Source: Amphiscolops sp. MND2022 (lineage: Eukaryota). Taken from it: DNA of 64,000 nucleotides. Position numbers and translations under genes: made by a program. The notes beneath the pieces were generated by a model that did not search any database, was not told the DNA's origin, and was given only the letters and a program-made list of their open reading frames with translations. The stretch covers positions 69,132,001 to 69,196,000 of the forward strand of contig OZ076409.1 of NCBI GenBank assembly GCA_964187785.1, in the 5' to 3' direction. Within the stretch, counting starts at the first letter, position 1. Every line of letters starts with the position of its first letter. Below are positions 921-48,904 of this stretch, one piece after another.

Positions 921-1142
921 TGTCATATTGGGTTCAAACCGGTTCAGACTACCATTTAACCTCTACCGAGATTCGGTCTACAAACTATCTAGTCTAGATA
1001 CTAGAGTTGTTTACTAACAAACTCAATCTACATTAAATTGCATTTGATACATATGTACAATTGGATTTGATAGAGAACAGTCGAAACTAGAGATATATCT
1101 TTTATTCTTTTCCATCTTAACCTAGATCTAGAGAATACAACA
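921..1142 (+). repeat. 5' LTR of element 1
   Basis: Direct repeat of 6575-6796, TG...CA ends, followed by the PBS. Confidence 0.97.
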
Positions 1143-1152
1143 TGGCGCAGTC
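1143..1152 (+). promoter_or_regulatory. Primer-binding site, tRNA-Ser type
   Basis: TGGCGCAGTC directly after the LTR. Complementary to the 3' end (...GACUGCGCCA) of invertebrate tRNA-Ser. Confidence 0.75.
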
Positions 1153-1197
1153 AGCCAATTTTTAAACCGAAACAAATTTCTTAACATAGAAAACGAA

Positions 1198-4100
1198 ATG
1201 GCAGAGGAAAATACAGTCCCAAATCTCGAAGCAAAAACCACAGACGGGAATCCGGTATTTACAGCGAGACAGTGGCTAGAAAGATTCCGGCAGTTTTGCA
1301 AACGGGAACACAAGATGGATATCACACCACTAGTGAAAGGAGAAAACATGACTGATTCCGGATGGTCCGCAAAAGAACAAGCAATTCAAGAAGATTTCTT
1401 GTGGGGGAGTGGGACCGGAAGCATTATATCAGATAACCAGGGCCGAATATAAAACGGAACCCGACAGCATAAAAGTGAAAGATTTAATCCGATTATTCAC
1501 CGAATTCTACATGCCAAAAAGAAATACATACCATAATCGCGGAGATTTCTTCTGGGCGAAACAAACAAGAGGAAACACCGGAAGACTTCTGGAGACGACT
1601 AATCGAAATCGAAAAAGAATGTAACATTAACACTATTTCAGCAGAAGAATTGTTGATATCAAAATATATGACAGTAATCACCGACAAAAAATTATGGGAC
1701 AAAATAATGAAAGAAAAAACATTAGAACTGAAGAAGATAATTGAACTGATCAAGCAAAACACATATGAGAAGAAAAACAAAAAGAACACAATACCGGAAG
1801 CTTTGATATCAACAAAAGAGAAGCAAATAATAAAGGAAGAACCAATCCAGAGAATGGAAAAAGTCGGCACAAGACCGAAAAACAGAAATTTCGGAAACCG
1901 AACATGCAGATTCTGTAATGCGCCTATTTGGACTCCTTTACATAAATGTCCCGCACTACACGCCAACTGTAACAAATGCGGTAAGAAAGGACATTACGCA
2001 AAAGTATGCAGACAGAAAATGAACAACAACCGAACGGTGAAAAGACTAACCGAAAATGAACCAAACGAATCGGACGAACCGTCAAGCGAATCCGAAGACA
2101 GCATACACCACATAAAAGAAATAAAGAAAATAGACGAAACAAACAAACACTTCACCACAACACTAAAGATCAATGGAATACCGAAAGAATTTATAATTGA
2201 TACCGGATCACCAATATCATTAATGCCACATGACGAAAGAATAACGAAATCAACCGAAATACAGAAAATAACAAATCGGTATCAAGATGTAAACAAAAAC
2301 GAAGTAAAATTCCGGGGGAAAATTCCGGTAAACGTCGAACACGAAACCAACAAACAGAAAATGGAAATCTTGATAACCGAGAGAACAGATATAACACCAT
2401 TACTGGGGATGGATTGGATGAAGAAATTCAAACTAACAATTAGCAAAATTCAATTGGCCGAAAACAACCAATCAGAACGCGAGAAAGTATTCAATAAATT
2501 TCCGGACCTGTTTGAGAACAACGAAACGATAAAAGACACCGAGATAAACATCCAATTAAAACCAGGGCACTATCCGGTTACACAAAAAGCAAGACCGATA
2601 CAACTACACCTTCAAGATGTCGGACGGGAATTAGAAAAACTAATAAAATCCGGACACCTAGAAAAAATAAACGATGTAGATGAAGACTGTTTTGTATCAC
2701 CGGTGGTAATAACAGTAAAAAGCGACAAGTCGGTGACAATAGCGCTAGACTCAAGGAAATTGAACGACAGTTGCATTAAAATGAGACCCCATATGCCAAA
2801 TATGGAAGAATTACTGAACCAAATATCGGTGGAAATAACACGCGACAGAACAGTAAAACTTTTCATATCCAAAATAGACTTGGATTACGCATACGGACAA
2901 ATGAGACTATCAGAAGAAACAAGACGACGCTGCGTATTTGCACTAACCGGAGGAAAATTCAGCGGATATTACCGGTTCAAAAAAGGGTTTTACGGACTTG
3001 CCGACAAACCCACAATATTCCAAGAAAAAATTGACCGAACACTTGAATACTGCACACCGGCATGGTTGGACGATATAATTGTGGTAACACGGGGAAGCAG
3101 ACAAGACCACGAGAAGAAACTATTCGACGTCCTAAATAAATTGGAAAAAGCCGGTTACCGAGCAAGTAAAAAGAAATCAGAATTCTTTATGAACCGGATA
3201 AAATGGTTGGGACACGAAATCTATGAGAACGGAATCAAACCGAACGAAGAAAAAGTAGAAGCAATACTGAAATTGAAATCACCGGAAAACACAAAAGAAC
3301 TAAAGTCATTTCTCGGAGCAATACAATATATGGCTAAATTTCTACCGAAACTTTCGGAACAAACCGACCGGTTGCGGAAACTATTGAAAAAGAACGACCC
3401 ATGGAAATGGGCAGAAGAACAACAGAAAGACTTCGGAAAAATAAAACAAATGTTAACCGAAGGCCCATGCTTAGCACACTACGCAAAAGATAAAGAGAAC
3501 ATAGTAACAACGGACGCCAGCACTACCGGACTGGGAATAACACTATGGCAAAAGCAAGACGACGGAAACACAAAACCGATAGCATTCGGAAGCAGATACT
3601 TAAACGATACCGAAAAGAAATATTCCATCGGTGAACTAGAACTACTAGCAGTAGTGTGGGGACTTGAGAAATTCCGATTTTTTTTATACGGAAAAAAGGT
3701 ACACCTTTATACCGACCACCAAGCACTAGAACCATTAATTAAAAGAAACCGGAGCAATAAACAATATAGTGCGCGATTAACAAGATGGTTAGACCGCTTA
3801 ACTTATTTTGATATATCGATACAACACATTGCAGGAAATAACTTGAAATTCACCGATTACCTTAGTAGAAATCCGGTAGGGGGAGCTACACCGGAGGAAA
3901 GTTACGACGAGGAATACGTCATCAACATACTATCCGAACAAGCAAAACTGAACATAAAATACGGACCAATATTCGCCGACCAATCAAAAAGCGAGAAAGC
4001 AATAACCGAGACAAAGGAGAACACATCCGAAGAACAAAATGAGAATCGCGCGAACCAATCACAGAAGAATAGAACATTCGAGAACGAAAACAACGTGAAC

Positions 4101-6408
4101 AAACACCGACGAAATAAGAAAACCACATCCGGGCAGTCCGAAATTAGCACGCTAGAGAGAAGTCATTCAACGAAAGAAGCTAAAAGTTTAAATCAAACTC
4201 AAAAGAGCAGAAAATTAAATACGGAAATTACCGAAACGGATCGTGAAAACTTTTATCACTGGGGCGCCACACGGGAAATTATGGAGATTATCCGCAGACG
4301 AAACAACAGCCCAGAGACACGCCGACTAGTCGAACAAAGAAATCAACTATCCCGGCCAGGAACATTACGACGCCGGTACGACCAATACACACAACGGACA
4401 GTATTCGCCCCATCAAGTTCTAACAAAAGGAGTAGAGAGGAGATTGCTGAAATCGATGCGGAGATAATGAGAAGAGCGAACCGACTGGGAGGCGGGTACC
4501 AACCCATGACCGAAGAACAAGATGAACCGGAAGAACTACGGGAAGAAGGTGAACTGGAAATTGAAAACGCCGAGTCCGAAGAAGACAGTATCATAATGCG
4601 GGGCGACAATATACCTATAGTAGACCTCAGCAAATACAACACGGATGGAAAGGAAGCGAAATACATCCAAATTAACCACATTGTGGGGAAACTGACCGGC
4701 AACAAGAAAATCACGGAAGAACACATAAAGAAGGCGGAATTCGAGTTCATGATGGACTTGAAGACACTTATCGCCAAAACAGCCATCGACCCGGAACTAG
4801 CCCGCGTCAGAAACAGCATCAGGAGGGAAGACCGGGAAACAATTCCGGATGGCTACCGGACAGTATTCGAAAAACTGTCAATAAGATGGGGCCTGGTTTT
4901 CGTAGACGACCAAATCGTCGTGCCAATCGACCTTAGACGAAAACTCCTAGATATCATCCACTTCGGTCACTCCGGAATAACAAAAATGAACACAGAAGCC
5001 AAAATATTCTGGTGGCCCGGAATGAAGCAGGACATCGAGAATAAAGTGAAAGACTGCACTGCTTGCCTCGCATCAGGTAAAAACCTTAATTATCAATTAC
5101 CGAAAAAACATTACGGAAAATTAGATAAATTAACCGAACCCGGCCAGGAAATAAATCGATTTTACCGAAAAATTACACAATAAAAAGATAAACGGAGATG
5201 TACAAATACTAATAGCGATAGACAGATTTAGTAAATGGCCAACCGTAAAAATCTGCAAGTCAGCGGAAACAAAAGAAGTCATAAATTTTTTATCGAGTAA
5301 CTTTAATTTATACGGAATACCCGAATAAATTAAATCCGATAAAGGAGGAGCATTTGTTTCCAGAGAATACCGAGAATTTTGCAAAAACCGAAATATTGAA
5401 ATTGAATACTGTACCCCCAGAATACATAGAACAGTAGAAAGAGCCATACAAACACTGAAGAATCTAATTATAGCAAATATGGAAGACAACACAAGCCTAA
5501 CCGAAAGTGTAAATCGAGCATTACATATAATGCGATTTACAATACATACCGGACTAAAATTAACACCATTCGAATTACATCACGGTAGAAAACCGAGAAC
5601 CGAATTAACAAATATTGTTAAAGACGGAAAATCATATCTGTCTGATTGGTCAGAACTATCTGTTTCAGCATCAAACAAACCAAAAATCCCAATCTATGTG
5701 GGCCGTGATGCGGATGGAGACATCATAAATCACCTTGTGATGGCGAGAACGAAAACAGAGGAAAAACACCTCGCCGTCGGACCAAAGTCACCGAAAAAGA
5801 AAAACTCGGTTAGATACCCCTTTCATTTTGTTGAAAAAAACTACAACAAAAAATCATTAGAAGGAAAATTCCAAAATAAAATCCAAACCGCCATAAGCGG
5901 AACCGAGAGTACCATAAAAACCGATACCGGAAAAACAATAAACCGAAAATTTATTTCGGACCCATTATTTCAGACCGAGAGAAAAATCAGAAAAGAGCCG
6001 GCCTTGCACACAACCGGCGAAATAAACCCAAAAAACCGACACTGCATACGCCGACTGGACGGGAAGTACAGCCGGTGGGATGAAATTCTCAAGGACATCC
6101 TGAACGGCAAACTGAAAATCGTCCCGAACAAAAAGCGGGCAGATAGCGATACCGAAGAAGACGATGACGACGAAGACGAAGAAATGCCGGAAGAAGCCGG
6201 AACACCAATAGTGTACGACACATCCGAGAAAGACGGGAGATACGTGCCAATACGGACGAATCCGGAAGAAGAAGACACGTTACAACTACATACCGACAGC
6301 GAAATAACGGGTGAGAAACCAAAAACACAAATAAGACGAACTAACCGAGAAAGCAAAATACCGAATAAATACGGTAGTATAACATATACCGGAAACTTTT
6401 GGGGATAG
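1198..6408 (+). pseudogene. gag-pol polyprotein of element 1 (frameshifted)
   Basis: Gag zinc knuckles CRFC...HKC and CNKCGKKGHYAKVC, protease IIDTGS, RT WLDD, RNase H TTDAS...ELELLAV...TDH, integrase H..H..CTAC zinc finger and DDE core. Frameshifts at about 1405, 1565 and 5150; TAA at 5326. Confidence 0.93.
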
Positions 6409-6545
6409 AAAATAAATGTTTAATTTATATTACAGGTACCGTGTGGACCAGACACAAGGGAATACCAAAACCCGAGACAGCACAAAAGCCAGCGGACTTT
6501 CTCCCAGAAGAATCCACAACCCCAGGACCCTCAAACCGAAATTGA
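4236..6545 (+). CDS. Predicted spliced accessory ORF nested in pol of element 1: join(4236-5076,5669-5808,5974-6310,6436-6545), about 475 aa
   Basis: GT-AG introns 5077-5668, 5809-5973 and 6311-6435 are conserved in position and phase in all three elements, and the spliced frame is open. The start codon is ACG here (ATG in elements 2 and 3); the next ATG is at 4281. Confidence 0.6.
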
Positions 6546-6574
6546 AGAAGATGCGAAAAGAATAGGGGGAGAAA

Positions 6575-6796
6575 TGTCATATTCGGTTCAAACCGGTTCA
6601 GACTACCATTTAACCTCTACCGAGATTCGGTCTACAAACTATCTAGTCTAGATACTAGAGTTGTTTACTAACAAACTCAATCTACATTAAATTACATTTG
6701 ATACATATGTACAATTGGATTTGATAGAGAACAGTCAAAACTAGAGATATAACTTTTATTCTTTTCCATCTTAACCTAGATCTAGAGAATACAACA
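6575..6796 (+). repeat. 3' LTR of element 1
   Basis: Direct repeat of 921-1142, preceded by the PPT and followed by the TSD. Confidence 0.97.
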
Positions 6797-23300: not shown

Positions 23301-26300
23301 GGGCCGACATGAGACGTTCTTGACTTGTTATTTCAATCAAGACCACAGACTCACAATAAATAGTCCATATTTTGCAAATATGTACTAAACTCCACGATTT
23401 TTTTGTTTTTGTGACGTTTTCAACGTTTCTCACCTTTGGTAACTCATAAAACTAGAAGGAACCAAAATGTCATCGTTTGGATCTATTTCGAGTCGTAAGA
23501 TTTGTCCGAACTTTTGAATGTTTCTAAAGGGTCCCACTTTGAATACTCTGATGCTTTGCAACCTCCAAACCTCAAAGAGAAACCCCATTTAGTATTTTAG
23601 TTTTCTCAGATCAGTGGTGTCGATTTGAAGTCAATTTTTAAACGATTTTGTTTAGTGGTTCTTGTTCATTCGCTTTCCTTGGACTTTGATGCTGAGTTTT
23701 TGAAAGTGTTGTTAGGCAAACAAACCAAGAAAGAATTGCAATAGCATTTTATTGCACCTCTTTTGTCATTTACAAAAACGCTCCACATTAGATGAAATTG
23801 GAAGAAAGTGGACACCGTAGAAGTTGATAAGCGCAGCTTTTTATGGTTTTTATTACGTTTTAATTTACTTCCATTCCTCGAAATGCATTCTGTTCTCATG
23901 CCCAGCGCTGAGAACAGGCACTCATTAGTTATTAAATATGCTGCAAGAAAACAGCCAAAAAGAGCGAAAAAGGATCCTCTCAACCATTAGATGTCCATAC
24001 ATAATCGTTTCCACAAGCGAGCAATCAATTTGACCAAGACATTCAGTCGACAGCATTTTTTAAAATCCAGGTCATTGGTTATAACAACCGGTCATAAATG
24101 CCTGGATAGGTTTATTGCGGACTGCGGAAAAATCAATTTATTCGATGACGTCACGCATGACAGGTCATGAACTCTAACCTCGGTGACAGTGGTGGTGTTA
24201 CCTATGACCGTGTTCTCCCTGTGGAACTGGTTCATCTGTGTTTTGGGGTCAAACAGCACTTTGCGTTCAGTGGTTGCTATACCCAGTGCTTGGGCCTGGA
24301 AAATATTTATCAATGACACAATGATCGGTTTGAAATTTACAGTTTGCTACCATTCGTTTTCTGATCAATGGAAAACTGAATTCTCAGTTGGTATTCGATA
24401 AATTCATTTCAAAGTTGACTTGGATCAAAGGAAGGAGAAAAAGATTTGCAGTACAAAAAATTCCAATTTATGGTAGGAAAATTTTTAAATGGCTCAGTTT
24501 TCATTTGCGGTACTATCAGTAGAAGCAAAAGAAGTCAATACTAGCCAAGTATTGACTCACAGATTTTGTTTTCAAACGTGACATTATTTTGACAAATTGG
24601 TAATACCATCTATTTATATGTCGTTCTAGTTCGAGGAAAAGTTCAAGCTCAGCGGCAACTCAATATATCAAAAGTTTGACCCTATTTGTGACCTTCGTGC
24701 AAAAGGTTTCACTCACAGAGACTGTAAAAAGAGAATGAGGTCAATGCTAATCCTACCTTTGCTAGTTCATCATCGTGATCAACATTGATAACACTGTTGT
24801 TACCCTGGGTCGTCTTCTGTTTATTGACTCCTTTGAGGTCGGGGGGTTCTATCCGCCTGATGCCGGCCGTGAATGCTCCCTCGGCTGCTAAATTTCCAGC
24901 CCTGCCCAGGTGAGAATGGAGTCGCCTGATGAGGAGGTTGTATGCGGAGAAGACACTGCAACTCTGATTCTGCAGAAGAATCTTCACTGCCTGTGTTGTG
25001 TTAATCTGCAGTCGGTCCTCCATAAACTTGAGCACCGACCGGTTCAGAGACTCTGCTTTTATCTGGACAGACAAGAACCAAGATTGATGATCAATATTAA
25101 ACAGGTGCAAACACAGGCTCGGGTAGAAACGGGAGGCGGAAATTTCGTCGTCAGAAATTTCGTCGTAAGAAATTTCGTCGTATTAGCAAACCCAGAAATT
25201 TCGTCGTCAGAAAATTCGTCGTCGGAAATTTCGTCGTATTGATTAGAACAACAGCGTTCACCGAAAGATATCATTTGAATTATACAATTACTTATTTATT
25301 AAAATGAGATCTTAAGAACAAGTTTCATTTTGACACCAAAATTGAGTCAAAAAGTTAATTGCATTCAATCAACTCATCAAGACGCTTATTAAGCAATGGT
25401 ATATTTTCAGTCCTACCGGTGGAACTACTTACCGGAGCTTTACAATACAATTCAAAATTGCTCCGGGGGGAAGTTTTGCTTTTTTGTCAGAAAATTATCA
25501 AAAAATCCTTTGGTAATGGAAATTTTTGTGTCGAAAGAACTTCGTATTGGGGGGATAAGAAACAATTGTTTCTTATCCCCCAATACGAAGTTGTTTCGAC
25601 ACAAAAATTTCCATTTTCCTAAAAACCCATCGACCTCCAGAGGTGGACCATCCATGGACCTTCCCTTGTCATTGATAGTATGCCCTTGGGTCTCAATACG
25701 GTATGTGTTTCTACGATTACCAGAAATTTCGTCGTCGGAAATTTCGTCGTCAGAGATTTCGTCGCAAGAAATTTCGTCGTCGGAAATTTCGTCGTCGGAA
25801 ATTTCGTCGTCGGAAATTTCGTCGTCGGTGATTACGTTCTATAAAACGTCGCATTTTCTTTAATCAATTAGGAATCGCCTTATTATTGCGTCTTAATAAT
25901 TATCGATAATTGTGCAATAATTACTATCATTGACTACTTTTTGTTATGGTTTCGGACCTTATAACTCCTCATATACACCTTAAGGTCGTTTAATTCGACT
26001 GACATAGCCGGAATGTGAATTTTTTTATCTTTGGCTATCAAAATTAAATCTGTGCTGATATTTTGGCCGTTTTAATAAAATATTCCCATGAGAATTATCT
26101 TTCTTCTGTAGCCACTGAAGGTTGATTGCTCACTTGACTTGAACAAAGCTACAATAAAATGGAAGTTTCGAGGTCCACACATTGTTTTTTGAAGGATCTC
26201 GATTTTCCGACAATGAGGAAATTTTCTTTAAAAATTTCTCCTTGTTGATCGGGATCTGATACCGGTTTCTTTAGAACTTATTCCAGCAATTTTGATTTTT

Positions 26301-29300: not shown

Positions 29301-32300
29301 AAACTTCGGTATCTTTTCAAATCGAAATGTAAAAAAAAATCCGCTTCCTGATATATCGCCTTTTCTAATGAAAATGTGGTATATCCATATTTTTCAAACT
29401 TGAACCTGATTTATTTCGAGTATTTTCAGAAAAAGTTGGGGTTTCGAGTTGGGGGTAATAAGATGGAACGTTTCTTTTCCACAATTTGTATTTTGAAATC
29501 ACCGTTTCCTGTTATGAGACGAGAAAGTCCCCTTTATCCGAAATTTTAATATTCTATTACTTAGAATATCTATTACTTAGACTTCTATTAGATCTTACAA
29601 AGACGTAAATATTTTTTTCTCGAATTGCCATTGCAGAACTCTACTAGCTGATTTATAATGATTTTCAGGGACTGTTTTAGGTCAAAATAATCCCGTTACA
29701 TTTTTTGGCAATTAATTAAGGCCTGGAGGTGATTGTTTTTTTTCAAAAACATCTTATCAGTTTCCTATGCAAAATACGGCAAGGCCACTGTGCGTATTGT
29801 ATTGTATCTACGTTCGATGCCGCCACGGTGACTTCGAAACAAAATATGTGATTCTAACAGGAAGCTGTTTCTGTCTTCACAGGCTAATACGATTACTGAA
29901 TTCTGCATTGACAAGCCCACTGACGGGGAGTATGCCGGAAAATTTCAACGTTTTAATATCTAGAGGAAATTAAGTCACCATAAGGACGATATGATAGTGA
30001 AAATTGAACAAAACAGAGTTAGGAATAAATGTAATAATAATATAGTCAGACTTCTATTGCATGTATGAAACTTTTTCACCCTCGAACAAAGTTGACCCAC
30101 TTCTGCATGACTGACCCAGTGGGTCAAATGACAAAGAAATCAACTCAGCAGTTTGAAAGCAACGACCAAAGATGCATAAAAATGCGTCAAAACCATTTTA
30201 ACCTTTAACCTTTGAACAGGGAGCGGACTAAACGTATAGACGTCAAACATCTTTTCGTGAGAAAGGGAAAAGGACGGGACTCTCGTATTCCGGTACCGTG
30301 AAACCAAAGAAGTTTCGGATGACTAAAACTGTTGGAGCCGAAGTTTGCGAAAAACAGGAAATAGGTTCTTGGTACAAGAAAAACATAGAGGGTTGTTTAA
30401 AAAAGGAAAAACTCTCCGAATTTTTGAGCTGATTACGGATGTTAGCTAACCTGACTCACAACACGTAACGATGAAAAAATTTAAACATTTAAATCAAAAT
30501 TATAATTATTGAAAGATGCTTACATGCTCCAGACATCTACTTTGGGCCCATATTTGTTCTTGCCAAGAAGCTCGGGGGCGGCATAAGCAGGAGATCCACA
30601 TTGGGTGGCCTGTTGGAAATCACCTAAGCGGCCATTTTCTTCCAATTTGAAGTTGCGACTTAGTCCGAAATCTGCAAAAACACACATAAAGTTAAAATCA
30701 AGACCCGTCTGGTGTCAATAATGCATCGAAAAACGGCCTAATGATGAAGTTTCAGATCGATGAAGCATCTCTAAATGCTAAGAATTAGATTGATCTTCTC
30801 AAAATTTATCTAATCAAAGTTGAGTTTTCAAAAGCTTGATGACGTAGTTAAAAGGCTGGGTCATCTCCTGTTAGTTTGGCATTATCAGCAAAATCAATTG
30901 CAATGGTGACCACAAAATGTATGCCCAATGTGAAAATAACTCACCTATAAGCTTCATATTCTTTTTCTCGTCCAATAGTAGATTTTCCACTTTCAAATCC
31001 CTGAAAGAAAAGTATGCAATTTTTTTCCACACAACAATTATTTCAAAGTTCAGTACCTTCGAATTCAGGTGAAAAATAACTAGGAATATTGTAGATAATT
31101 TCTACGGAGGTGGTCTTTGTAACTTTTTTTGGGACATACTTTTTGCTTAAAAATCTCCGATTCTCAGCTTTCTTCTCTCAAAAATTTTTGATCTTGTATT
31201 CAATGTATATCAAAGCAATGGTATGCACTGAAACAGCCCTGCTCAATGTCTAATAGTTTCAGTCAATGAAAATTTCGAAATTTCGGGAAAGGGGAATGGA
31301 GGGGGGGGTAGTTCGGGAATACAAACCTGTGCAAGATGCCTGCCCTATGTAGATGGTCCACAGCCGATATAATCTGTCTCACATACTTCCTGGTCTCTTT
31401 TTCGGGTAAGCTCTTCCTGAAAGTTTATTCGATTGAATTCACTGAAATTATTTTTTGGCATTAATGTTTCTTCATAAACTTTTCCCGTTTTCACTCTCGT
31501 CCTACAATTTTCTAAAATTTCATTTCAAAAATTCCAATGAAAACTCGTTGTTTCAACCAAAAATGTTTGAAAAAGTTTCTATAGTTTCGAATTGAGAAAC
31601 GCGTTTTCGAAAGAGCCAAAAGACAGAAGACAAAAATGGGCTTTGATAACAAATAACAAACATGGTCCTTCAAGTGCCAAAATAAAACCAAGAAACATTA
31701 AAAAACACGATGAAAAAATGAAAAAAAAACAAGCTTTTCTGAGATATACCTGATCTTTAGGTACTCCATCATATCTCCCCCTGAGCACAGCTCCATGACG
31801 AGATAGTAACTGTTCTCTGTCTCTAAAATGTCGTACAACTGGATGATACAAGGGTGTCTGACTAGCTGCAAGATCCTACCTTCTCTGCGAAGGTTTTTGT
31901 GCACGTACGAATCTTCTTTGGCTCGCTTCTTGTCAATCACTTTAATTGCCACCTTAAATAAAACAGTTTCTGGTTGATCAATGAGTTCACTGGTTTCAGC
32001 ATTGCGAATCATTTCCAATAGCTTTTTCAAACATATTTTACCAAAGAAATTCACAAAAATGAACAGAAAATGAATGAATTGCAAAGTATGAGCTTCAGAA
32101 CTGTTGTAATCTAGCTTTATGGTTAAAGAGTATCTCAGTACAAAACTCAATTGTTTTCTAGCTTACTATACAAGCTTTCTCATAGTAGATCATCTGCGCT
32201 TAAGTGGCAGGTATTTAAATAAAAGAACATCAAATACAAGTGTAGTAGACAGTTTATAGACTAATTAAGTTAATTGTCTGCACTCTCTACATTTCCCCCC

Positions 32301-35300
32301 TCACTATTGGCTGATGTTCGGCCAATGGGTTTCTGTTCTTCTACTGTATGGCGGTAGTTCCTCCAATGGTCCAGTTGTTTATGGACGGATGACCGATCCT
32401 CGCTTGTGTGGTTGTCACGGTGAGTGTTTGTCCGTGACGTCAGTTTGCTGTCCGTTGTATGGACTAGTTGAGGTTGCTTGGTTCCGTTTCCATTTGGTTC
32501 AGGTTCAGCCTTTCTACGGTGTTTCCTGTAATCATGACATACTGGGTTATTATATCTAACAATTGGGTTAGTTTTGTTAGTCTTTTTGATCTGCGTACTG
32601 TTTTTTCTTCTTCGTGTTTAATATCTGCTTCTAATTCAGTGCTAGAGCTCAGATTACTGATCAAGTCTAATTCAGAATTTTCAAAGTTGTTCTCTTCCCC
32701 CGTTTTAGGAAAAGAAGTCAGATTTTTAAACACCTTACCATTATCATCTCTGATAAAAAGTTCATCATTCGCTTGTCTAGCGTCTTCGATAGCACGGTTG
32801 ATCTCCGTGTCTGTCATGTTGGCTGCGGTGATGGTAAGTGGGCCAGTGCTGCCCGTCCCTCCTGGTGGGGATTGGTGGGGGCTTGAGTTTCTCCGGTCTC
32901 GTATTAATTTCACTGGTCTGCCTCTGCCGTACGTACCGTTTTTCACCGTGGCGTTGTCCGGTTGGTCCGTGGTGATAGGGCTGCTTGTCTCTGGTAGCGG
33001 TATCTCGGTGTCTGATTCGATCACGTATGCCCTCTTCAGTTGTGATGGTGATCTTGTAAACCGGCCGTCTGGCCCTCTCGGCCCAGTTCCTCTGTTGTTG
33101 TTGCATTCCTGGTTAAAATTACAGATGGGTTTACTAATAGATTTCTTGTGTATTATTCTTCCGTTTGGCGTTGTTACGGTATGGTTCGTTTCCGAAATAG
33201 CTATATTCGGTTTATCTGTATATGCACTTTCGATCTTTGTTTTGTGATGTTTTTTCCTAAGAAAAGAAAAGGGTGGTTACTAACTCCTTTATCGCTTTTT
33301 CTTGTCTTCATCGGTAGCTGGTCGGAGACACAGCCAACTCCGCTGAATGAATATACCTGTAAGGTATCTGGTTTCGCTGAAATGGAATTCTTTGTTAGAT
33401 TTTTCAAGTTATCTAAGCTTAACAGATTAGAAATTTCCGTGTTTGGTTTTCGACCGTAATGTAGTTCGAATGCGGACTTCTTTAGTTTCGTGTGAGGTGT
33501 TTTTCTCATCACGTCTAATGACAAGTCTAGAGCTTTTCCGAATCGTTCTCCGGCCTTAATGTTCGTTAGAAGATTATCTTTCAGAGTTCTGACCCCTCTT
33601 TCTACTAAGCCTGTGGGGGTGTGGATGTACGGTGTTCCGTAGATCAGTTTAATGTAGTGTTTTTTGCAGAAATTGCGGAAAGTGCGGCCCGTAAACGCAG
33701 TCGCCTTATCGGTTTTAATTGTCTTTGGTATACCGTTCAGTTGAATATATTGTTCAAGGAATGTTACCGCCGTTTCCCCGTCGGTGTGTTTGCAGAAACT
33801 GGCTGCCGGCCATTTGCTGTACCGGTCAATGGATAGTAGTATATAAAATCGACGGTTATTGTCCGTGATTGGTCCGATGAAATCCAATTGGATTTCTTCG
33901 TTCGGACTATTCACCGGGGGTAGGTTATTTTTTTTCCGTGCTGGGTATGTTAGGTTTTATGCTCTTACCGGACATTTTGCAGGGGATGCAAGTTTCACAT
34001 TTTTTCTGTATGGCTTCTGTCATCTTCGGCCACCAGAAGTGTCGAGCTGCCAGAGTCATCTTATTGATGGCTGGATGTCCTTTGTGCAAAGGGCTGATGA
34101 CTGTGGTTCGGAGGTTTTTTGGTACTATAATTCTGTCTTCCATGAAAACAAGACCGAACCGGCTGGATAATTTTCTTCTGACCGTTTGATATTCATCAGG
34201 TATCATTTCGTGCTGTTGTCTTTCGAGAAATACCAGGGTTTTTAGCAAGCTGGGGTCGTTTGTGGTCTCAGTCATCAATAGCTGCAAATCCGTGGAGAAG
34301 TTCTTTTCTGTCTCCCGCACTGCGTGTTCGAGGTTCCATTCATTTCGCTCTTCTGCTGCGACTCTTGGTGCGTGTCCCATCTTTACATACTGGACACTTT
34401 TTACCCCGACGTATCGTGCCGAATTTATTGCTGGCACCTCTAGGACCGAAGGGTCTTGGTCCGTTTCCGAGTCAATCTCACCTTCTTCCATAGGGATTGG
34501 TGCGGAGGATGGGCCAGGTTTGTCCGGTTGGTGTTGGTGGACTGGGGTTGGTCGGTCCATGTCCCAATATGGGTCCACTGTCCATTGCTCGGAGTGACCG
34601 GTTTGTGGTTGATAGCCCCCTTTGTGTTGCGGTCCGATAATTTGTCGAAGGTCTTCTGGTTGTCGATTACTGGTAAGTTGTCGTAGTCGTTCCTCTATGA
34701 CTTTCCTCTCGTTGCGAAGGAATTTAGGTTCATGGTAGCGTTTCCATCTCCCCCCGGTCATGCGGTAAATTCCGGGTTTGACAATTTCTTTCCACCGAGT
34801 CGTTAGCTTGGTTATTTCGGCGGAATTAAATCTTGCTTCGATGTTTTCGATCGTTTTAGCATCCATTTTTAATGTGGTATGCTTTAAGTTTTTTAATTTG
34901 TTTGGCTTTGAGCGTGTGTGTACGGCGCTGTTAAGGCAATCAATGGCAGTTTGTTCACGCGTGTCGTTTGTCGATGGCTCGTTGTTCGATTTGCGTTCAC
35001 TTATCTCGGTACCGTTTTCTGATTGGCTCGCATGGTTGCTAAGGCAACCGTATTTGGAGATGAAGCTGTAGTGTGGAATGATATTGTTGATTACGTATTC
35101 TTCGTCGTACGTATCGTCCGCTTGTGGTGGTAATACCGGATTTCTGCTGAGATAATCCGTGAGTGCTAAGTGTTTGCCTGCTATATGGTTTACGTTGATC
35201 GTGAAACGTGCTAACCGGTCCAACCACCGTGTTAAGCGTGCGCTATATGTTTTATTGGAGCGATTTCGTTTAATTAATGGTTCTAATGCCTGGTGATCCG

Positions 35301-38300
35301 TCAAGAGTTTAATAGGTTTACCATAAATATATAGACGGAAATGTTCTAGGCCCCAAACTACTGCCAGTAGTTCGAGTTCATTGATGGCGTATTTTTTTTC
35401 TGTGTGTGATAGGAAGCGACTTGCAAAACCAATGGGTTTTAGTGTTCCGTTCGGTTGTTCTTGCCATAAGGTTGCCCCTAGGCCTTTTGTGCTCGCGTCG
35501 GTTGTTATCACGTTTGGATAATCGGAGTTGTAATGTGCTAGACACGGTATTTCCGTGATCTTTTGTTTTAAATTTTCGAAAGTCCGTGTATGTTCTTCCG
35601 TCCAGAGCCATTTGGTATTTTTTTTCAACAACTGTCTCAGACTATCGGTTTGGGCGGAAAGGTTGTCAATATATTTTGACAAATACTGGATGGCTCCCAG
35701 AAAAGATTTTAATTCCTTTTCGTTGTTCGGTTGTTTCAGTTCTTTTATAGCCAGTAGTTTGTCTTGTAACGGTCGGATTCCGGCTTGATCAATCCGGTGA
35801 CCGATCCATTCAATTTCTGTTTTGAAAAACTCGGATTTTGTCTCACTCAGTCTGTATCCAGCGTTTTCGAGTTTGGTTAGGACGTCAATTAATTCTTTCA
35901 TGTGTTCTTCTTTGGATCCTTTCGTTACCACGATGATATCATCTAGCCATGCTGGATGTTTGTTTTCCAGTGTCTGGTCGATCTTTTCTTGGAATATCGT
36001 CGGTATATCCGCTAACCCATAAAATCCTTTTAGGAAGCGGTAGTAACCGGTGAAGTTTCCTCCGGTTACGGCGAATATGCACAAGTTTCTGGCTGATTTT
36101 GAAAGTATGAGCTGACCGTAGGCATAATCTAAATCGAATTTGGAAATCCAGATTTCATCTGCTGGACCGTCTGCTATTTTTCTCGATATTCTCGAAATTA
36201 GCTCTTCCATGTTCGGCATTTGAGCTTTTCGTTTCACGGTTATTTCGTTTAGCTTTCTTGAATCTAACGCAATTTTTACGGATTTATCTTTACCGTGATG
36301 ACTGCTGGGCTCACGAAGCAATTTTCGTCAATATTGTTGGCCTTTTCAATGTGGCCTTGTTTTATTAACTTTTCTATTTCTTTTTCCACCGATTGTTGCA
36401 AATGTATCGGTATGGGTCTTCCCTTCTGTTGTATCAATTTGGCATCTTCTTTCAGTTGTATTTTCACTTCTAGCCCGTTTACTGTATGGTTTTCATTGAA
36501 CAGCTTTTTGAATTTTGTTTTTAATTTGTTACATCTGGGTCTTCTTTTATTTGATGTATTTGTGGGACGGTCGTATCGGTCTCCAGCGTTATTCCCAATT
36601 TTTTCATCCAGTCCAAACCTAGCAGAGGGTTTGTTTTCTTGGTTGTTACTAGAAGCTCCAGTTCTTTTCGTGTTCCGTTAATTTCTACTTTCGCGGTTGT
36701 TTTCCCTTCAAATCGTATCCGGTTGCCATTCACGTACCGGTATTCGGTTTCTAAGGGGTGTAACGGTGTTAACTTGTTGAATTGTGATTTTAGTATTAGC
36801 GTTACTGGTGAACCGCTGTCTATTATGAATTTAATTGGTCGGTTGTTAACCAATGCGGTGATTGTGAAGAATTCCGGTCCGTTGCTGCTCATCTACCGGG
36901 TTGAACGTATCTTTTGTTTTACTGAATGGATTGTGTTCGGTGTCCAGTCGTCTTCACCTGCGCTGCTTGTTTCACCTTCCATTAAGTGGTTTACTCTTTT
37001 GTTTGCGCGGCAGCATTTAGCGAAATGGCCAATTTTGCTACATTTTGCACATTTCTTTCCTCTGGCGGGTCATTCATGTTGGCGTGACCAGTTCGGTGCT
37101 CCGCAACGGTTGCAGTCAATCTTTTTAAATTTTGCCGGTTTTTCTAGTTGTTCTTTTGTGGTTTTTGTTTTTCGTTTGTTTACATATCGGATTTTCTTCT
37201 CTTCCTCTGTTTCGGGTGAGTCGTTTAATTTTTCGTACATATACTCATGTATTGCATCGGTTATGGCTTCTACCGACATATCACTCTTTCTAATTTTCTT
37301 TTTCAAGTCGTAATCACCGGTTGATTTACCGATCAGTGACAAAAATTTTGATGCTATGAGTTCTGCTGCGGTAACTGTTTCAAACTCGCAGTTCTTTTCC
37401 ACTTCTAATATCCGTTTCCATACATATGCTGCAGTTTCGCCGTCTTCCCGTTTCAAATCAAATCCCGTTTCAAATCAACGCTCTGCTATGGTGTACGTTC
37501 CTCTCTGGGGTGAAGTGTAGTCGGAAGGGTGTGTAGAGTTTGCTCGGTTCTCTTTCCCTGACCGTCTTTGTCATCTCCGTGATAGCATTTTGTCCGATTG
37601 CCCAGATAAAAATGTCTTTTATATCTGTTTCGAGTTGTTCACGGTATTGTGGTAGGATTTCTTTGCTGTTCGTCATGGTTGACAAATCTATGTCTTTCGT
37701 CATTTTTATATATTGGACGAATTTTCTCCACCACATGCTTGCATTGGCTTGGTCTTGCTTTTCTAGCGTGGGAATGGTGAGCTTCTGGGTGCAGTTCCGG
37801 TCTGCCGTCCTGTTCATTGTGTCGTTCGGTAACATTTGTCCATCTCGTTGTGTTCCCGTTGACGTCTGTGTGTTCTCTCCGTCTCCCGTGTTTTCGTCCA
37901 TATTGAATGGTTACTTTCTCTTTTTGGTGTGAATCGTGTATAGCTTGAACGCTATTCTGACTGCGCCATGTTGTAATCTAGCTTTATGGTTAAAGAAGTA
38001 TCTCAGTACAAAACTCAATTGTTTTCTAGCTTACTATACAAGCTTTCTGATAGTAGATCATCTGCGCTTAAGTGGCAGGTATTTAAATAAAAGAACATCA
38101 AATACAAGTGTAGTAGACAGTTTATAGACTAATTAAGTTAATTGTCTGCACTCTCTACAAGAACAGACACGGTCAAATAGCAGTTTGCAAAACATAGAAA
38201 AATCTTGCCAATGTAATAGTCGTGCGCATTTTCTGGTAAAATGTGCCGACTAAAAACGAGACATTCTAGAGGTGCTTGATTGATTCATCACCATTGATGT

Positions 38301-41294
38301 CGGCCAAGTCTTGAGAAACGATGTTTTGTTTGAAAGTGCTTATTTCAATGCTAGAACCAACATGAATACTTTGTGAAGAAGCTTATGCGATAGGTGACTG
38401 AGTGGGTTTCAAAATTATCATTTGTTTTTATTGCTTTTTCATCCTATCTTTTGTAATTGGTTATAGTTTCAATTATTGTCCAAATCCGGATTTGAATCTT
38501 CAATGCAATTCCGTACATGGGATCACATAATCAACACAACTCCATGCGATTCCAAAAATGGAACCAAGACATGCATGCTTTATTTGACATTCCATGCATG
38601 ACACCAAATGGGTCCCTTCTGGGTCCCTATGGAACTAATTAGTGTTTCGTATGGAATCATACAAAATTCATGGAATTCATAAATAATAGATATGGATACA
38701 AAATCAAAAACTAAACCTAACGTCAGAAAAATCGATTTTTTGGTTTTTATTTTTTAGAAGCATCAGGCCAACCAATTAAAGTTTGTACGGTTCAGTATCA
38801 GACTCTTTGTCACGTACGTAATATCAAGGGGTTGTTTTTTGCGCAATAAACATTACAGTTGTGTTTCAAATGTCCTTTCACTCAGACAGCGAATAAACCT
38901 TTTGATCGCAAAACAAAAATCACTTCAATTTATATTTCAGATTTTGAATTTTTTAGGCTGTTCCATGACAAAAATGACTGTGACTGTTAAATGCTGACCG
39001 CTTTCTAGCACATTCTTGTAAATTAACAAATATTCTGAATACTTGAATCAATTTACATGTAAACATCGGGACATTGTCATTTTCAAGCCCTTTTTGATAT
39101 TGAAAATTGGTATTGATCATTATAATGATCGATAACCAATTTTCAGTCTAGTTTGCTTTCATAACTATCGAAATTTTGCGTGAATTAGGTCATAATTCCA
39201 TGCATGAAACCATGGTGTTTCTTGCGATTCCACGGATAGAAACGACATGAAATTGTCGTATGGAACCGTATGGTTCCATGCATGTAACAGGATGCTGCGT
39301 TTGATCTCAATAAGAAGGAAGTTAGTTATTATACAATTTGAAGTTGAATGAACAAAAAGTGCCCATGTTGAGCTTTCCTTGAGAATCTGTAAAGATCTGT
39401 GAGCCAATTTTCCTTGAGGATCTGTAAAGATCGTGCCACTGCTACGTAAGGACAACTGCAGATCTGCAAGGATCTTTACAGATGCTCAAAGATTTTCTGT
39501 ACAGATTTTTCAGGAAAACTGTTTCCTGACCTTATAGTGAAACTATGCATTTCTTTTTTTGGGCTACTTCAATAAATATTCTTGCTGACTAAGGCTCAGT
39601 CAGTTGAAAATCTCCATCACTCAAAATTTTTGAGCAGGAAATCTTATTCCCATCTGGTGTTTTGGGAATGTTCGGTGTTGGTTATACACGTAATTTATCC
39701 ATTTCACTTGAACTTTCCAGAAGTGGTTTTTCAACTTTGAGAGGCTCGTTTGCCATATTGACTTCGTACTTTTTAATCAACTAATTTCATTTTCAAAAAC
39801 TGAATTTATGACTATTCAATTTTCGAATAATCCTGGAATATCGGTCTGCTCAATATGGGTGTTTTTTTCCAAAATTTAACATGCTCCAACATTTTATAGG
39901 TAAAAATGTACACAAACGAAACCATATTTTTATGTTGTCGATGCTTGGAATGAAACAACTCCGGAGAAAAGTTTTCGTATTCAATAAAAAATGGGAAAAT
40001 GGAAACAAAGGATACTTAGGTTATGAAACTTAAACTGATTTCTTAACTCATCTAATGTTTAAATCAAAGCTCTTAATATATGGCAGGTAAATAGCATAGT
40101 ATGTGCTTTTTGTTTGTACAATACGATGTTAATACAACTCATGATTCATACTGTGAATGACCCAAAAAAGACATTATTGCTAGAAACGATGATATTGGCG
40201 AAACATCGCGGTACTTGGAACTTCTTATTTTTCTGATGTTAAGCAAAAACTTTTTGTTTCTAATATAACTAATTCGATTGCAATTGTGAATATCTATGTT
40301 GAAGCAATGTCGTGTCATTTTTTGCTTCTTTTTCCTCAAATTAGTCAGAACGTTCACCTTTGTAGTATGGAAAATGTTTTTTTTCTGTATAATTAATGAT
40401 GCAAGCCTTGGTTCACAGACGACAACGGGCGCCAACCGGATGTCTCCAACATTTATACCTGTGGGGCAGAGACACTTTTGATTTTATGTATTCAATACAC
40501 TCTTGAAAAATTTGGAATATCAGAGAAAAAATATCTTAGATTATTTTAAAAACTTGCTCAGTAGAAATTAAAACTTTTCGGCTTCTCTCTCCGTTGTGGA
40601 GAATGATCATCTCTTGAACCGATTACGTATGAAAACTAACAACTTGTAAATGCATTCGAGTTGCTAACTGTAGTGAATTTTTCTGAATCATCGAAAAAGC
40701 CCTGAATGTAAAACTTAAACCTTGCTTGAATGCCAAAATTTAAAGAAAATCAATCTTGAACATTGAGACGACGCGTAGAGAAGCTATTCAGTTCCTTGAA
40801 TTGCACAATTGAGAATACCCCATTTTCGTAGGAATTACAAAAAGGAGGAGAGCATTTCTTATAGAATCTCAAAAAGTTATAAATGGAAGAATTGAAATGA
40901 ACATATATTCGTAATAAATAACGTAAAAAGACCCATCTAGGGAACGCTCAAAGTCCCTTTGAACGCTCAAAGTTCGTTAATTTTTTCGCCAAGAAAAAAT
41001 CCAATATCCAACCTTTTCTCCAGTGACAGTATGTAGCCCCTCCCGCACCTTCGCAAATGACCCCTCCCCCAACGTTTTGCCTAACAAGTAGTTTCCCACT
41101 CTTTTCGTATGGGGGTACTTCTCAAGAACCTCTCCGGGCACATTAGTGACCTCTTTGGGCAAAGGGGGGATTCCGGCCAGGTCTCCCAGACACGTGACTG
41201 CCCGCTTGGGGGGCTCATTGGGCACAGAATTGGGAACTGTCCCCCCTCCATTCGCAGCTGCAGCCGAAGCAGCTGCCGAGGCAGACACTGTCAT
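19734..41294 (-). CDS. HUNK: Hormonally up-regulated Neu-associated kinase orthologue (AMPK-related CAMK Ser/Thr kinase), 11 coding exons, about 746 aa
   Basis: Exons 41294-41013, 31952-31750, 31416-31327, 31000-30945, 30671-30524, 27781-27654, 26792-26659, 25062-24757, 24295-24179, 20826-20666, 20349-19734. All introns GT-AG with matching phases, 2241 nt in total. Signature KRVGNYLLGKTLGEGSFAKVREGLH-GEKVAIKVIDKKRAKEDSYVHKNLRREG-ETENSYYLVMELC, plus HRDLKVEN, DFG and TQCGSPAYAAPE. Confidence 0.93.
20666..20826 (-). CDS. HUNK: HUNK coding exon 10
   Basis: Acceptor TTTCAG, donor GTTAGT, phase 0/2 matching the last exon. Confidence 0.7.
21440..22110. mobile_element. Two partial HINE family copies in opposite orientation
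   Basis: GGCGCCGACTTGTT at about 21796-21809 and AACAAGCCTGGAACGGCCCAAGTCGGCGC at about 21867. Confidence 0.6.
22120..22278 (+). repeat. Minisatellite, about 22-bp unit (TCCGAACTTTGAAAACGTTA) x about 7
   Basis: Directly visible tandem units. Confidence 0.85.
22642..23329 (+). mobile_element. HINE family copy (opposite orientation)
   Basis: TTTTTAGTCGGCGC...CCGACTAT at the start; GCCGACATGAGACGTTCTTGACTTGTT at the end. Confidence 0.65.
24179..24295 (-). CDS. HUNK: HUNK coding exon 9
   Basis: Acceptor TTTTCCAG, donor GAG|GTTAGA, phase 0/0. Confidence 0.7.
24757..25062 (-). CDS. HUNK: HUNK coding exon 8 (UBA-like region)
   Basis: IKAESLNRSVLKFME...SAYNLL, phase 0/0, donor GTAGGA. Confidence 0.82.
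25139..25237 (+). repeat. 15-bp tandem array GAAATTTCGTCGTCR
   Basis: About 6 units. Confidence 0.9.
25515..25615. repeat. 101-bp spacerless palindrome
   Basis: Arms 25515-25565 and 25566-25615 are reverse complements with one mismatch and one G/C-run indel. Confidence 0.92.
25721..25828 (+). repeat. 15-bp tandem array GAAATTTCGTCGTCG
   Basis: About 7 units. The downstream flank is homologous to about 52850-53030. Confidence 0.9.
26659..26792 (-). CDS. HUNK: HUNK coding exon 7 (end of kinase domain)
   Basis: CIDLLKKLMNPDPTERISLEEAMNNDWINEGY...PFPNK. Confidence 0.9.
27654..27781 (-). CDS. HUNK: HUNK coding exon 6
   Basis: GVNMYAMLTGGLPFTAEPFSIKVLYQKM... Confidence 0.92.
28476..29295. mobile_element. 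Non-autonomous TIR element (CC(C)GGGTT.ACCCTC ends) containing a nested MITE at 28661-29191
   Basis: Outer TIR about 14 bp with CAAGATCTT subterminal repeats and AT flanks. Inner TIR CCCT.GT.G...TGCT.GAACTTTTTAC.TG about 32 bp with an AT duplication. Confidence 0.65.
30524..30671 (-). CDS. HUNK: HUNK coding exon 5 (activation loop)
   Basis: DFGLSR...TQCGSPAYAAPELL...DVWS, donor GTAAGC. Confidence 0.93.
30945..31000 (-). CDS. HUNK: HUNK coding exon 4
   Basis: DLKVENLLLDEKKNMKLI, donor GTGAGT. Confidence 0.92.
31327..31416 (-). CDS. HUNK: HUNK coding exon 3
   Basis: KSLPEKETRKYVRQIISAVDHLHRAGILH. Confidence 0.92.
31750..31952 (-). CDS. HUNK: HUNK coding exon 2
   Basis: VAIKVIDKK...MELCSGGDMMEYLKI, AG/GT flanks. 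Confidence 0.93.
32102..32291 (-). repeat. 3' LTR of element 2
   Basis: Direct repeat of 37969-38159. Confidence 0.96.
32464..34866 (-). CDS. Predicted spliced accessory ORF nested in pol of element 2: join(34866-33969,33376-33285,33108-32739,32525-32464), 473 aa
   Basis: ATG in AAAATGG context. Donors G|GTAAGA, A|GTTAGT, G|GTAAGG; acceptors CATTTCAG, TTAACCAG, ATTACAG. Fully open ATG to TAG although the unspliced frame is broken. Confidence 0.65.
32464..37901 (-). pseudogene. gag-pol polyprotein of element 2 (frameshifted)
   Basis: Gag CNRC..H, protease IIDSGS, RT WLDD, RNase H TTDAS, integrase H-H-CIPC and IQLDF/TDK/VER core, split across several frames. Confidence 0.92.
37969..38159 (-). 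repeat. 5' LTR of element 2
   Basis: Direct repeat of 32102-32291, adjacent to the PBS. Confidence 0.96.
39362..39859. mobile_element. MITE with CCCATGTTGAGC TIRs and 2-bp TSD (EnSpm/CACTA-like)
   Basis: CCCATGTTGAGC ... GCTCAATATGGG, flanked by TG/TG. Homologous to 60658-62014. Confidence 0.75.
41013..41294 (-). CDS. HUNK: HUNK coding exon 1 (N-terminus, Gly-rich loop)
   Basis: MTVSAS...GEGSFAKVREGLHTVTGEK. Donor AAG|GTTGGA. Upstream acceptor TTTTACACAG at 41350. Confidence 0.9.
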
Positions 41295-43002: not shown

Positions 43003-43237
43003 TGTGTCATCATCATGACCCCCTACCATAGATTTAGTACATACCGTAACATACGGGTTTAGACAGAGAGACTCGGTTGTTTACCAACAAAACTATAATT
43101 GCTGTCACTTTATGTTACCATATTTTGATACCATTATGTTGTTTAGTATAGAGAGAGATAACTTGATACTGAAAGAGATTTGAGTTGAAGTCTCAAAACA
43201 AAACCTTGTTTTAACCGTAGAATATCAGATTACAACA
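43003..43237 (+). repeat. 5' LTR of element 3
   Basis: Direct repeat of 48666-48904. Confidence 0.93.
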
Positions 43238-43300
43238 TGGCGCAGTAGCAAGATCCTATTTTTACCGTGTAAAAACCCATTTTACCCAACAAAAGAAACA

Positions 43301-48554: not shown

Positions 48555-48665
48555 AGTGAGAAGAATGACCGTACAATGCGGGAGAACAATGAAGAAATCC
48601 GTACAATACGGCACAGTGGACTGAACAAACAAACTTTTACCGGGTCACTCCGGAGGGGGGGGGGA

Positions 48666-48904
48666 TGTGACATGCCATCATCATGACCTCTACCATAGAT
48701 TTAGTACATACCGTAACATACGGGCTTAGACAGAGAGACTCGGTTGTTTACCAACAAAACTATATTTGCTGTCACTTTATGTTACCATAATTTGATACCA
48801 TTATGTTGTTTAGTATAGAGAGAGATACCTTGATATTGAAAGAGATTTGAGTTGAAGTCTCAAAACAAAACCTTGTGTTAACCGTAGAATATCAGATTAC
48901 AACA
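48666..48904 (+). repeat. 3' LTR of element 3
   Basis: Direct repeat of 43003-43237. Confidence 0.93.

Follow-up and report, generated by a model that had tools for sequence, protein, structure and literature searches.

Evidence for three introns within the integrase of Gypsy retrotransposons, and a candidate accessory protein

Introduction

LTR retrotransposons are usually regarded as intron-poor, with extra genes located before gag or after pol. The RNA pools of BARE and the intron of Ogre nonetheless exemplify functional introns in such elements; in copia/EVADE, BARE and Ogre alike there is one intron, which yields Gag or joins reading frames. Ty1 p22 restricts Ty1 through Gag, and the foamy-virus accessory proteins Tas and Bet have activator- or antagonist-type roles.

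We analyzed a 64,000-nt stretch of DNA (the window) and conducted genome-wide searches in the 1.07-Gb assembly. An earlier reading of this stretch (the original prediction) had proposed that three introns inside the pol of Gypsy elements splice out the integrase core. The closest functional precedent, missing from that prediction, is CERV of the C. elegans Gypsy element Cer1. CERV is made from a spliced mRNA, has five exons, three of which are shared with gag, and is required for export of unspliced RNA (PMC10309623). In both cases, Gypsy genomic RNA keeps host-type splice sites and a multi-exon mRNA leads to an accessory protein, which has some peptides in common with the polyprotein and one exon in its own frame (PMC10309623). 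However, the exons described here lie within and around integrase, keep the HHCC zinc finger, drop the DDE core and include none from gag; moreover, export has been demonstrated for CERV, while for the present elements it would be an argument by analogy (PMC10309623).

Other systems share individual features. The splicing of copia/EVADE gag is likewise a functional LTR-retrotransposon intron with spliced and unspliced RNA pools (PMC12786077). In contrast to copia/EVADE, BARE and Ogre, the present elements carry three introns within integrase, and their new C-terminal exon is under selection; copia-type gag splicing also does not fit, as a spliced genomic copy described below retains protease, RT and RNase H. 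Ty1i/p22 is similarly a shortened polyprotein product, probably with an internal start (PMC4599808); p22 derives from Gag, whereas the product considered here holds Integrase_H2C2 only. Foamy viruses have an internal promoter (PMC7828637), and both they and the Oikopleura Tor elements, through their env, resemble our elements in that a promoter in the coding region drives a 3' gene (PMC4402516, PMC7828637). In those systems the genes follow pol or env, whereas our elements have a putative promoter and exons that alternate with the modules of integrase. Word matching in the open full-text literature found no description of introns inside Gypsy integrase, which does not prove their absence.

Results

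Gypsy elements in the window

The window contains three complete elements, E1, E2 and E3 (Table 1), each about 5.9-6.1 kb in length. Their assignment to Ty3/Gypsy follows from paired LTRs, a short target duplication, a primer site, a purine tract and the Pfam domain order protease, RT, RNase H, integrase. The LTRs are of the form TG...CA and are 98%, 99% and 96% identical within the E1, E2 and E3 pairs, respectively; the 5-bp target duplications are exact for E1 and E2 and have one mismatch for E3. In E1, the primer site is 3' of the 5' LTR and the purine tract 5' of the 3' LTR. Although the LTRs of the three elements are unrelated, they have in common the primer site TGGCGCAGT, directly after ACAACA. 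Among solved structures, the PFV and Ty3 integrases are the best matches. The families of E1-E3 have a single long gag-pol frame of about 1800-1900 codons, and all three Gag proteins carry a double zinc knuckle, which suggests the Mag clade as a tentative label. The integrase cores of E1, E2, E3 and a fourth family, represented by locus L071, are 41-55% identical to one another. The E1 copy is itself defective, with gag frameshifted and integrase broken.

The window also holds exons of a host kinase, presumably HUNK-like, as well as a transposase frame and repeats (Table 1). E2 lies in sense orientation within an intron of this kinase gene, where the strong splice sites of the element might interfere with splicing of the host transcript.

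Table 1. Coordinates of features in the window
Feature	Position	Strand	Remarks
E1, complete Ty3/Gypsy LTR element	921-6796	+	LTRs 921-1142 and 6575-6796
E1 primer site	1143-1152	+	
CCAATCA box	4055-4061	+	181 nt before internal Met; second copy at 3980
Linker DNA element	4125-4150	+	near-invariant in E1-like subfamilies; 295 matches
E1 exon 1, coding part	4236-5076	+	helical domain, acidic linker, integrase N-terminal helices, HHCC zinc finger
E1 intron 1, phase 1	5077-5668	+	linker between zinc finger and core; entire DDE core
E1 exon 2	5669-5808	+	in pol frame
E1 intron 2, phase 0	5809-5973	+	conserved block of integrase C-terminal region
E1 exon 3	5974-6310	+	short helix and acidic disordered stretch, in pol frame
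E1 intron 3, phase 1	6311-6435	+	basic RR[ST]xR integrase tail; pol stop 6406-6408
E1 exon 4	6436-6545	+	35 codons beyond pol stop; purifying selection in spliced frame
E2, complete Gypsy LTR element	32102-38159	-	internal Met 34866
E2 primer site	37960-37968	-	
E2 introns	33968-33377, 33284-33109, 32738-32526	-	
E2 exon 3	32739-33108	-	
E3, complete but decayed Gypsy LTR element	43005-48904	+	
E3 primer site	43238-43247	+	
E3 introns	47100-47661, 47811-47999, 48379-48527	+	
Host protein kinase exons	41011-41200, 31748-31952, 30520-30672	-	Pfam Pkinase
MULE transposase frame	57115-57981	-	inverted repeats about 56250-56360 and 58330-58430
Exact direct repeat, 300 nt	48979-49278 and 50669-50968		1690 nt apart
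Tandem array, 15-nt unit	25196-25874		

Splice sites and their conservation

Nine donors and nine acceptors had been proposed for the three elements; all 18 are present at the positions and with the letters that were given for them. The spliced frame of E1 from position 4236 is open for 475 codons, as had also been claimed, and that of E2 for 473 codons from its internal Met. In E3 the spliced frame is broken, codon 83 of the translated stretch being the first stop. The spliced products are of similar size (475 aa in E1, 470-473 aa in E2), although exon lengths differ.

Conservation was assessed in 30 copies of each of two families, counting the invariant dinucleotide and its close context. 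Each site is retained in 28-30 of the 30 E1-family copies and in 28-30 of the 30 E2-family copies, where the commonest 9-mer of donor 3 occurs in 26. Fourteen more distant loci were added: five E1-like, three E2-like, L071, four from other Gypsy clades, and L061, which was excluded from the counts because its element sequence ends roughly 300 nt past donor 1. In the E1-like subfamilies, donor 1, acceptor 1, donor 2 and acceptor 3 are found at all five loci, acceptor 2 at four (it is lost at one) and a strong donor 3 at four (it is weak at one). The sites are retained at the three E2-like loci, with acceptor 2 recorded for two of these, and all six are present in L071, where acceptor 3 has two candidates. 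At none of the four loci from other Gypsy clades was a donor found after the CxxC.

With GT donors and T-rich AG acceptors resembling those of the host, the introns have the features of U2 spliceosomal introns; the host kinase exons within the window have GT-AG junctions and T-rich acceptors. A branch-point consensus is patchy across the introns. The E2 group has a second acceptor-like TTACAG 20 nt past acceptor 1 (position 33357, minus strand, and position 647 of L067); it is out of phase with donor 1 and might provide an alternative isoform.

It is important to consider whether the protein sequence alone might dictate these sites. The original prediction had suggested examining synonymous positions, and at donor 1 this examination supported it: of 701 genomic matches, 692 encode the Gly with GGT and 9 with any other codon, and the reversed control had no matches. 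These counts come from related copies, not independent events, but cover many subfamilies. The remaining wobble positions of the donor 1 27-mer vary freely. In a control Thr-Gly-Lys 93 nt downstream in the same elements, tallied on the first 100 of 514 matches, the Gly codon is GGA in 95, GGG in 3 and GGT in 2. When synonymous codons were shuffled in one natural family copy, the five sites in the pol frame occurred together in 0 of 2000 shuffles, while each alone occurred in 2-34%. The splice sites are not forced by the protein sequence. Composition also differs within the one frame, exons having 45-55% GC and introns 30-42% in all six sequences measured.

Genomic copies lacking the introns

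We searched the genome for copies made from spliced RNA using a degenerate motif for the exon 1-exon 2 junction. There were nine matches, against none for the reversed control, and four of the nine loci (L075, L076, L077 and L078) were inspected. Intron 1 is exactly removed in all four. In L075 and L076, which are 96% and 84% identical to E1, respectively, all three introns are missing, with the junctions at the predicted bases; L078 is without introns 1 and 2, and in L077 intron 1 is gone. These reverse-transcribed copies exhibit the exact removal through an RNA step that is expected of U2 introns, and the proposal of three introns is borne out by them.

Both LTRs are present in L075, as is a target duplication, GTATC, that matches perfectly. 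Probes from gag, protease, RT and RNase H show the locus to be colinear with E1 (12 of 12, with offsets of 0-5 nt). L075 must therefore be a genuine insertion, made from a full-length RNA that was either spliced or recombined, and the integrase for this insertion is supplied in trans.

Among database proteins, P0287, from a third subfamily, has all three spliced junctions and P0373 has junction 2 alone; P0006 and P0271 correspond to L075 and L076, and so are not independent cases. P0292 was excluded: it may have lost intron 3, but its junction is about 4 residues short. The L071 family has one junction-1 match, known by its matched letters only. The same holds for one exact match in the E3 family (G000:C12:25057240), which was the one exact and E3-like match among 11 in a search whose control gave two; most rows with two mismatches in this search resemble unspliced copies from another family. 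For the E2 family, the junction-1 motif search of the genome gave no matches. The counts (nine versus about 700) suggest that spliced copies make up around 1% of inserted copies, a rough figure because the search patterns differ. Identical junction-1 matches at G000:C3:53900343 and C3:53902663 are 2.3 kb apart, perhaps through tandem duplication of a spliced copy.

Microhomology amounts to 4 nt at junction 1, 1 nt at junction 2 and 3 nt at junction 3. Given the 4 nt at junction 1, copies missing intron 1 alone could be deletions. However, the exact loss of three introns together cannot reasonably be microhomology deletion. Thus, although the demonstration from genomic sequence is indirect, it is strong, and we regard it as almost certain that the three introns inside integrase are real and that splicing has occurred.

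Selection on exon 4 and the distribution of lesions

In the spliced frame of exon 4, four E1-like subfamily sequences gave a pooled pS of 0.71, pN of 0.24 and pN/pS of 0.35. The other two frames gave pN/pS of 1.4-1.5 and contain stops. Third positions vary in 30 of the 35 codons, compared with 14 and 14 for the other positions. The length of intron 3 modulo 3 differs among subfamilies, which argues against a fixed frameshift or read-through. Purifying selection past the pol stop implies that the spliced protein is made and matters, and on this evidence the proposal that a spliced product is encoded stands. In E2-family copies, exon 4 overlaps the pol tail in a different frame.

A further argument of the original prediction, that lesions in E1 are confined to intron 1, failed when extended to other copies, as there is no consistent sparing of exons. 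The E1 family has a mild excess of lesions in introns (15 events per 1428 exon nt, 19 per 863 intron nt) and the E2 family shows the reverse (13 per 1351 and 6 per 982, in a count that leaves out 4 chimeric or truncated loci of 30). We rejected the argument, since the 16 of 30 E1-family copies with an open spliced frame, versus 9 of 30 with an open, longer pol frame, are what length alone would lead one to expect. The internal start codon at 4236 is mutated in E1 and is Met in the other 29 of 30 family copies; with its gag frameshifted as well, E1 does not count as a copy whose spliced gene has been spared. In four E1-family copies (L003, L004, L006 and L030), intron 1 has the same one-base change in length; these copies may belong to a sublineage with a defective core that was moved in trans, or else the site may be a slippage hotspot.

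The predicted spliced protein

Intron 1 begins three codons past the CxxC and covers the stretch that aligns with the foamy-virus integrase catalytic core, in agreement with the claim that splicing excises the DDE core. The conserved block within intron 2 may be SH3-like; a model of the unspliced integrase (pLDDT 34) is too poor to judge its fold. The basic RR[ST]xR tail lies inside intron 3 in all four families.

Integrase_H2C2 is the only Pfam domain of the spliced product. Its structural model (mean pLDDT 59) predicts one confident new domain of about 75 residues, comprising two helices, a hairpin and a helix, along with the integrase N-terminal helices and long, presumably disordered acidic stretches. 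Comparison of the new domain with PDB representatives gave an unclear best match (Z 5.6, rmsd 5.3 over 70 residues), comparison with the Atlas gave a best value of 0.84 and no clear match, and comparison with viral structure models gave no matches at E<=0.001, although searches that lack a clear match do not establish the fold as new. In this model and these comparisons, no likeness to Rev or to CERV, which has H, M and G domains, was found. Over exon 1, E1 and E2 are 29% identical. Homologues of the new domain, among the matches listed, are all ENA contig proteins; JGI metagenomes gave two matches to the zinc finger only, and viral contigs gave none.

Exon 3 of E2, as well as L067 and L069, contains an AT-hook-like GRGRP and an RGxDGRF motif, and exon 3 of E1 has a related LDGKY stretch. 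In one E1-family protein, P0001, an internal segment of ~120 residues in exon 1 is tandemly duplicated.

Possible origin of the spliced mRNA

Of the 71 homologues that extend upstream, 44 have a Met after the hypervariable linker, and the number grows if off-by-one placements are counted; this Met is also present in E2 and E3. In E1, the GC content rises stepwise at this internal Met. CCAATCA occurs 160 nt upstream of the Met in E2 and E3, somewhat nearer than in E1 (Table 1), and this box is a candidate internal-promoter element, weak on its own.

The otherwise variable linker between RNase H and exon 1 contains, in E1-like subfamilies, a 26-nt element about 110-85 nt upstream of the Met that hardly varies even at silent positions. 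Its Gln codon is CAG in 100 of 100 of the matches listed, versus 8 of 46 in E1 pol. We consider this element a candidate core promoter or RNA element. It was not seen in E2 or E3, folding of the linker RNA gave no structure better than shuffles in any of five stretches, and no Rfam match was found in E1. An 11-mer common to E1 and E2 is within chance.

Several other ideas were tried and rejected. A splice acceptor at the linker element would lack the T-rich tract of the other acceptors; a donor-like site in the Gag knuckle of E1, which would permit a gag-to-exon 1 splice, is missing from E2 and E3; and an ACCG enrichment noticed by eye is outside the top 4-mers. The only spliced copy traced into its 5' part, L075, is a full-length element with gag to RT unspliced, and it agrees equally well with a spliced RNA that starts in the LTR. 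On balance, we think that the conserved Met (position 4236) is probably where translation begins, and that the mRNA probably arises from a promoter inside the RNase H linker.

Discussion

We favor, with a probability of roughly 0.55, the explanation that these elements encode a functional accessory protein translated from an internal start. One Gypsy clade would thereby obtain two products from the 3' half of a single gag-pol frame. The unspliced RNA would serve as genome and encode full integrase, and the host spliceosome would remove three GT-AG introns to give an accessory protein of about 470-475 aa. This protein would begin with the new helical domain, the acidic linker and the N-terminal/HHCC domain of integrase, continue with two exons derived from linkers, and end in a peptide that exists only after splicing. 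The DDE core would be absent from it, as would the basic tail and the conserved block of the C-terminal region. A genomic RNA with three host-type introns would require either that their removal be blocked or that the RNA be exported unspliced. By analogy, we tentatively suggest, as the likeliest single role although one less probable than not, that the accessory protein acts like Rev or Cer1 CERV, as a helper for unspliced RNA. Default splicing would make this protein first, and the protein would then enable genomic RNA that retains its introns to evade splicing and exit the nucleus. Of the inserted copies, roughly 1% might derive from spliced or recombined RNA, with integrase acting in trans. 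Also speculative is the wider picture, in which the clade has built a regulatory gene reminiscent of those of complex retroviruses by converting the conserved modules of its integrase into introns and the variable linkers into exons. The gene would have an internal promoter of its own, and its product would be a Rev-like switch, evolved independently, that governs the choice between genomic and spliced RNA.

It is unlikely, in our estimation, that the spliced RNA instead starts in the 5' LTR and encodes a Gag-PR-RT-RH polyprotein with a catalytically empty tail. Splicing would then tune the integrase ratio in a single-frame element or separate translated from packaged RNA, comparably to copia and BARE, and the protease may even free the same accessory part. 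L075, a full-length spliced element, is what this explanation predicts, and the single gag-pol frame and the occurrence of partly spliced full-length forms also agree with it. However, template switching between genomic and subgenomic RNA would yield L075 as well, RT and protease stay in, hence nothing is gained in Gag excess, and the conserved Met after a hypervariable linker, the invariant linker element and the GC step are left unexplained. It is very improbable that there is no functional spliced protein and that we are dealing with tolerated cryptic sites, or with microhomology deletions in the copies that lack introns. The microhomology at junctions 1 and 3, the lack of exon sparing in inserted copies and the rarity of spliced copies might be cited in its support, but three exact GT-AG deletions occur together in separate subfamilies, homology at junction 2 is a single nucleotide, the codon bias of 692 versus 9 was accompanied by a control, exon 4 is under selection and the donor after the CxxC is missing at 4 of 4 outgroup-clade loci.

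Different functions for the protein must also be weighed. It might be a trans-dominant brake on integration that enters integrase multimers through its zinc-finger domain but brings no catalytic core. The retention of the HHCC domain and the exact omission of the core are suggestive of this, and the signs of an internal start fit the p22 scheme (PMC4599808). Yet a pure inhibitor would need neither three introns nor a selected exon 4, the clade is abundant (692 matches in one subgroup alone), and donor 1 may just be the first usable site past the new domain; we consider a brake quite improbable. We are no more inclined to see in the protein an activator of transcription or an antagonist of silencing whose expression, like that of foamy-virus accessory genes, is driven by an internal promoter. 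Acidic disordered stretches, basic clusters and the AT-hook-like GRGRP of the E2 group are compatible with such a role, and Tor elements have internal promoters (PMC4402516), but no known DNA-binding fold was matched and GRGRP is missing from E1.

The preferred explanation, an accessory protein from an internal start, describes a gene woven through integrase and kept across families that are 41-55% identical, with natural intron-loss copies as a genomic record of splicing. It suggests how a simple retroelement may acquire an accessory gene while adding no reading frame. Annotation based on ORFs misses genes of this kind, and the codon census, the search for spliced copies and the analysis of selection on a 3' exon are applicable to other genomes. 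For Gypsy elements in general, this clade would offer a second, independent case for asking how intron-containing RNA is exported.
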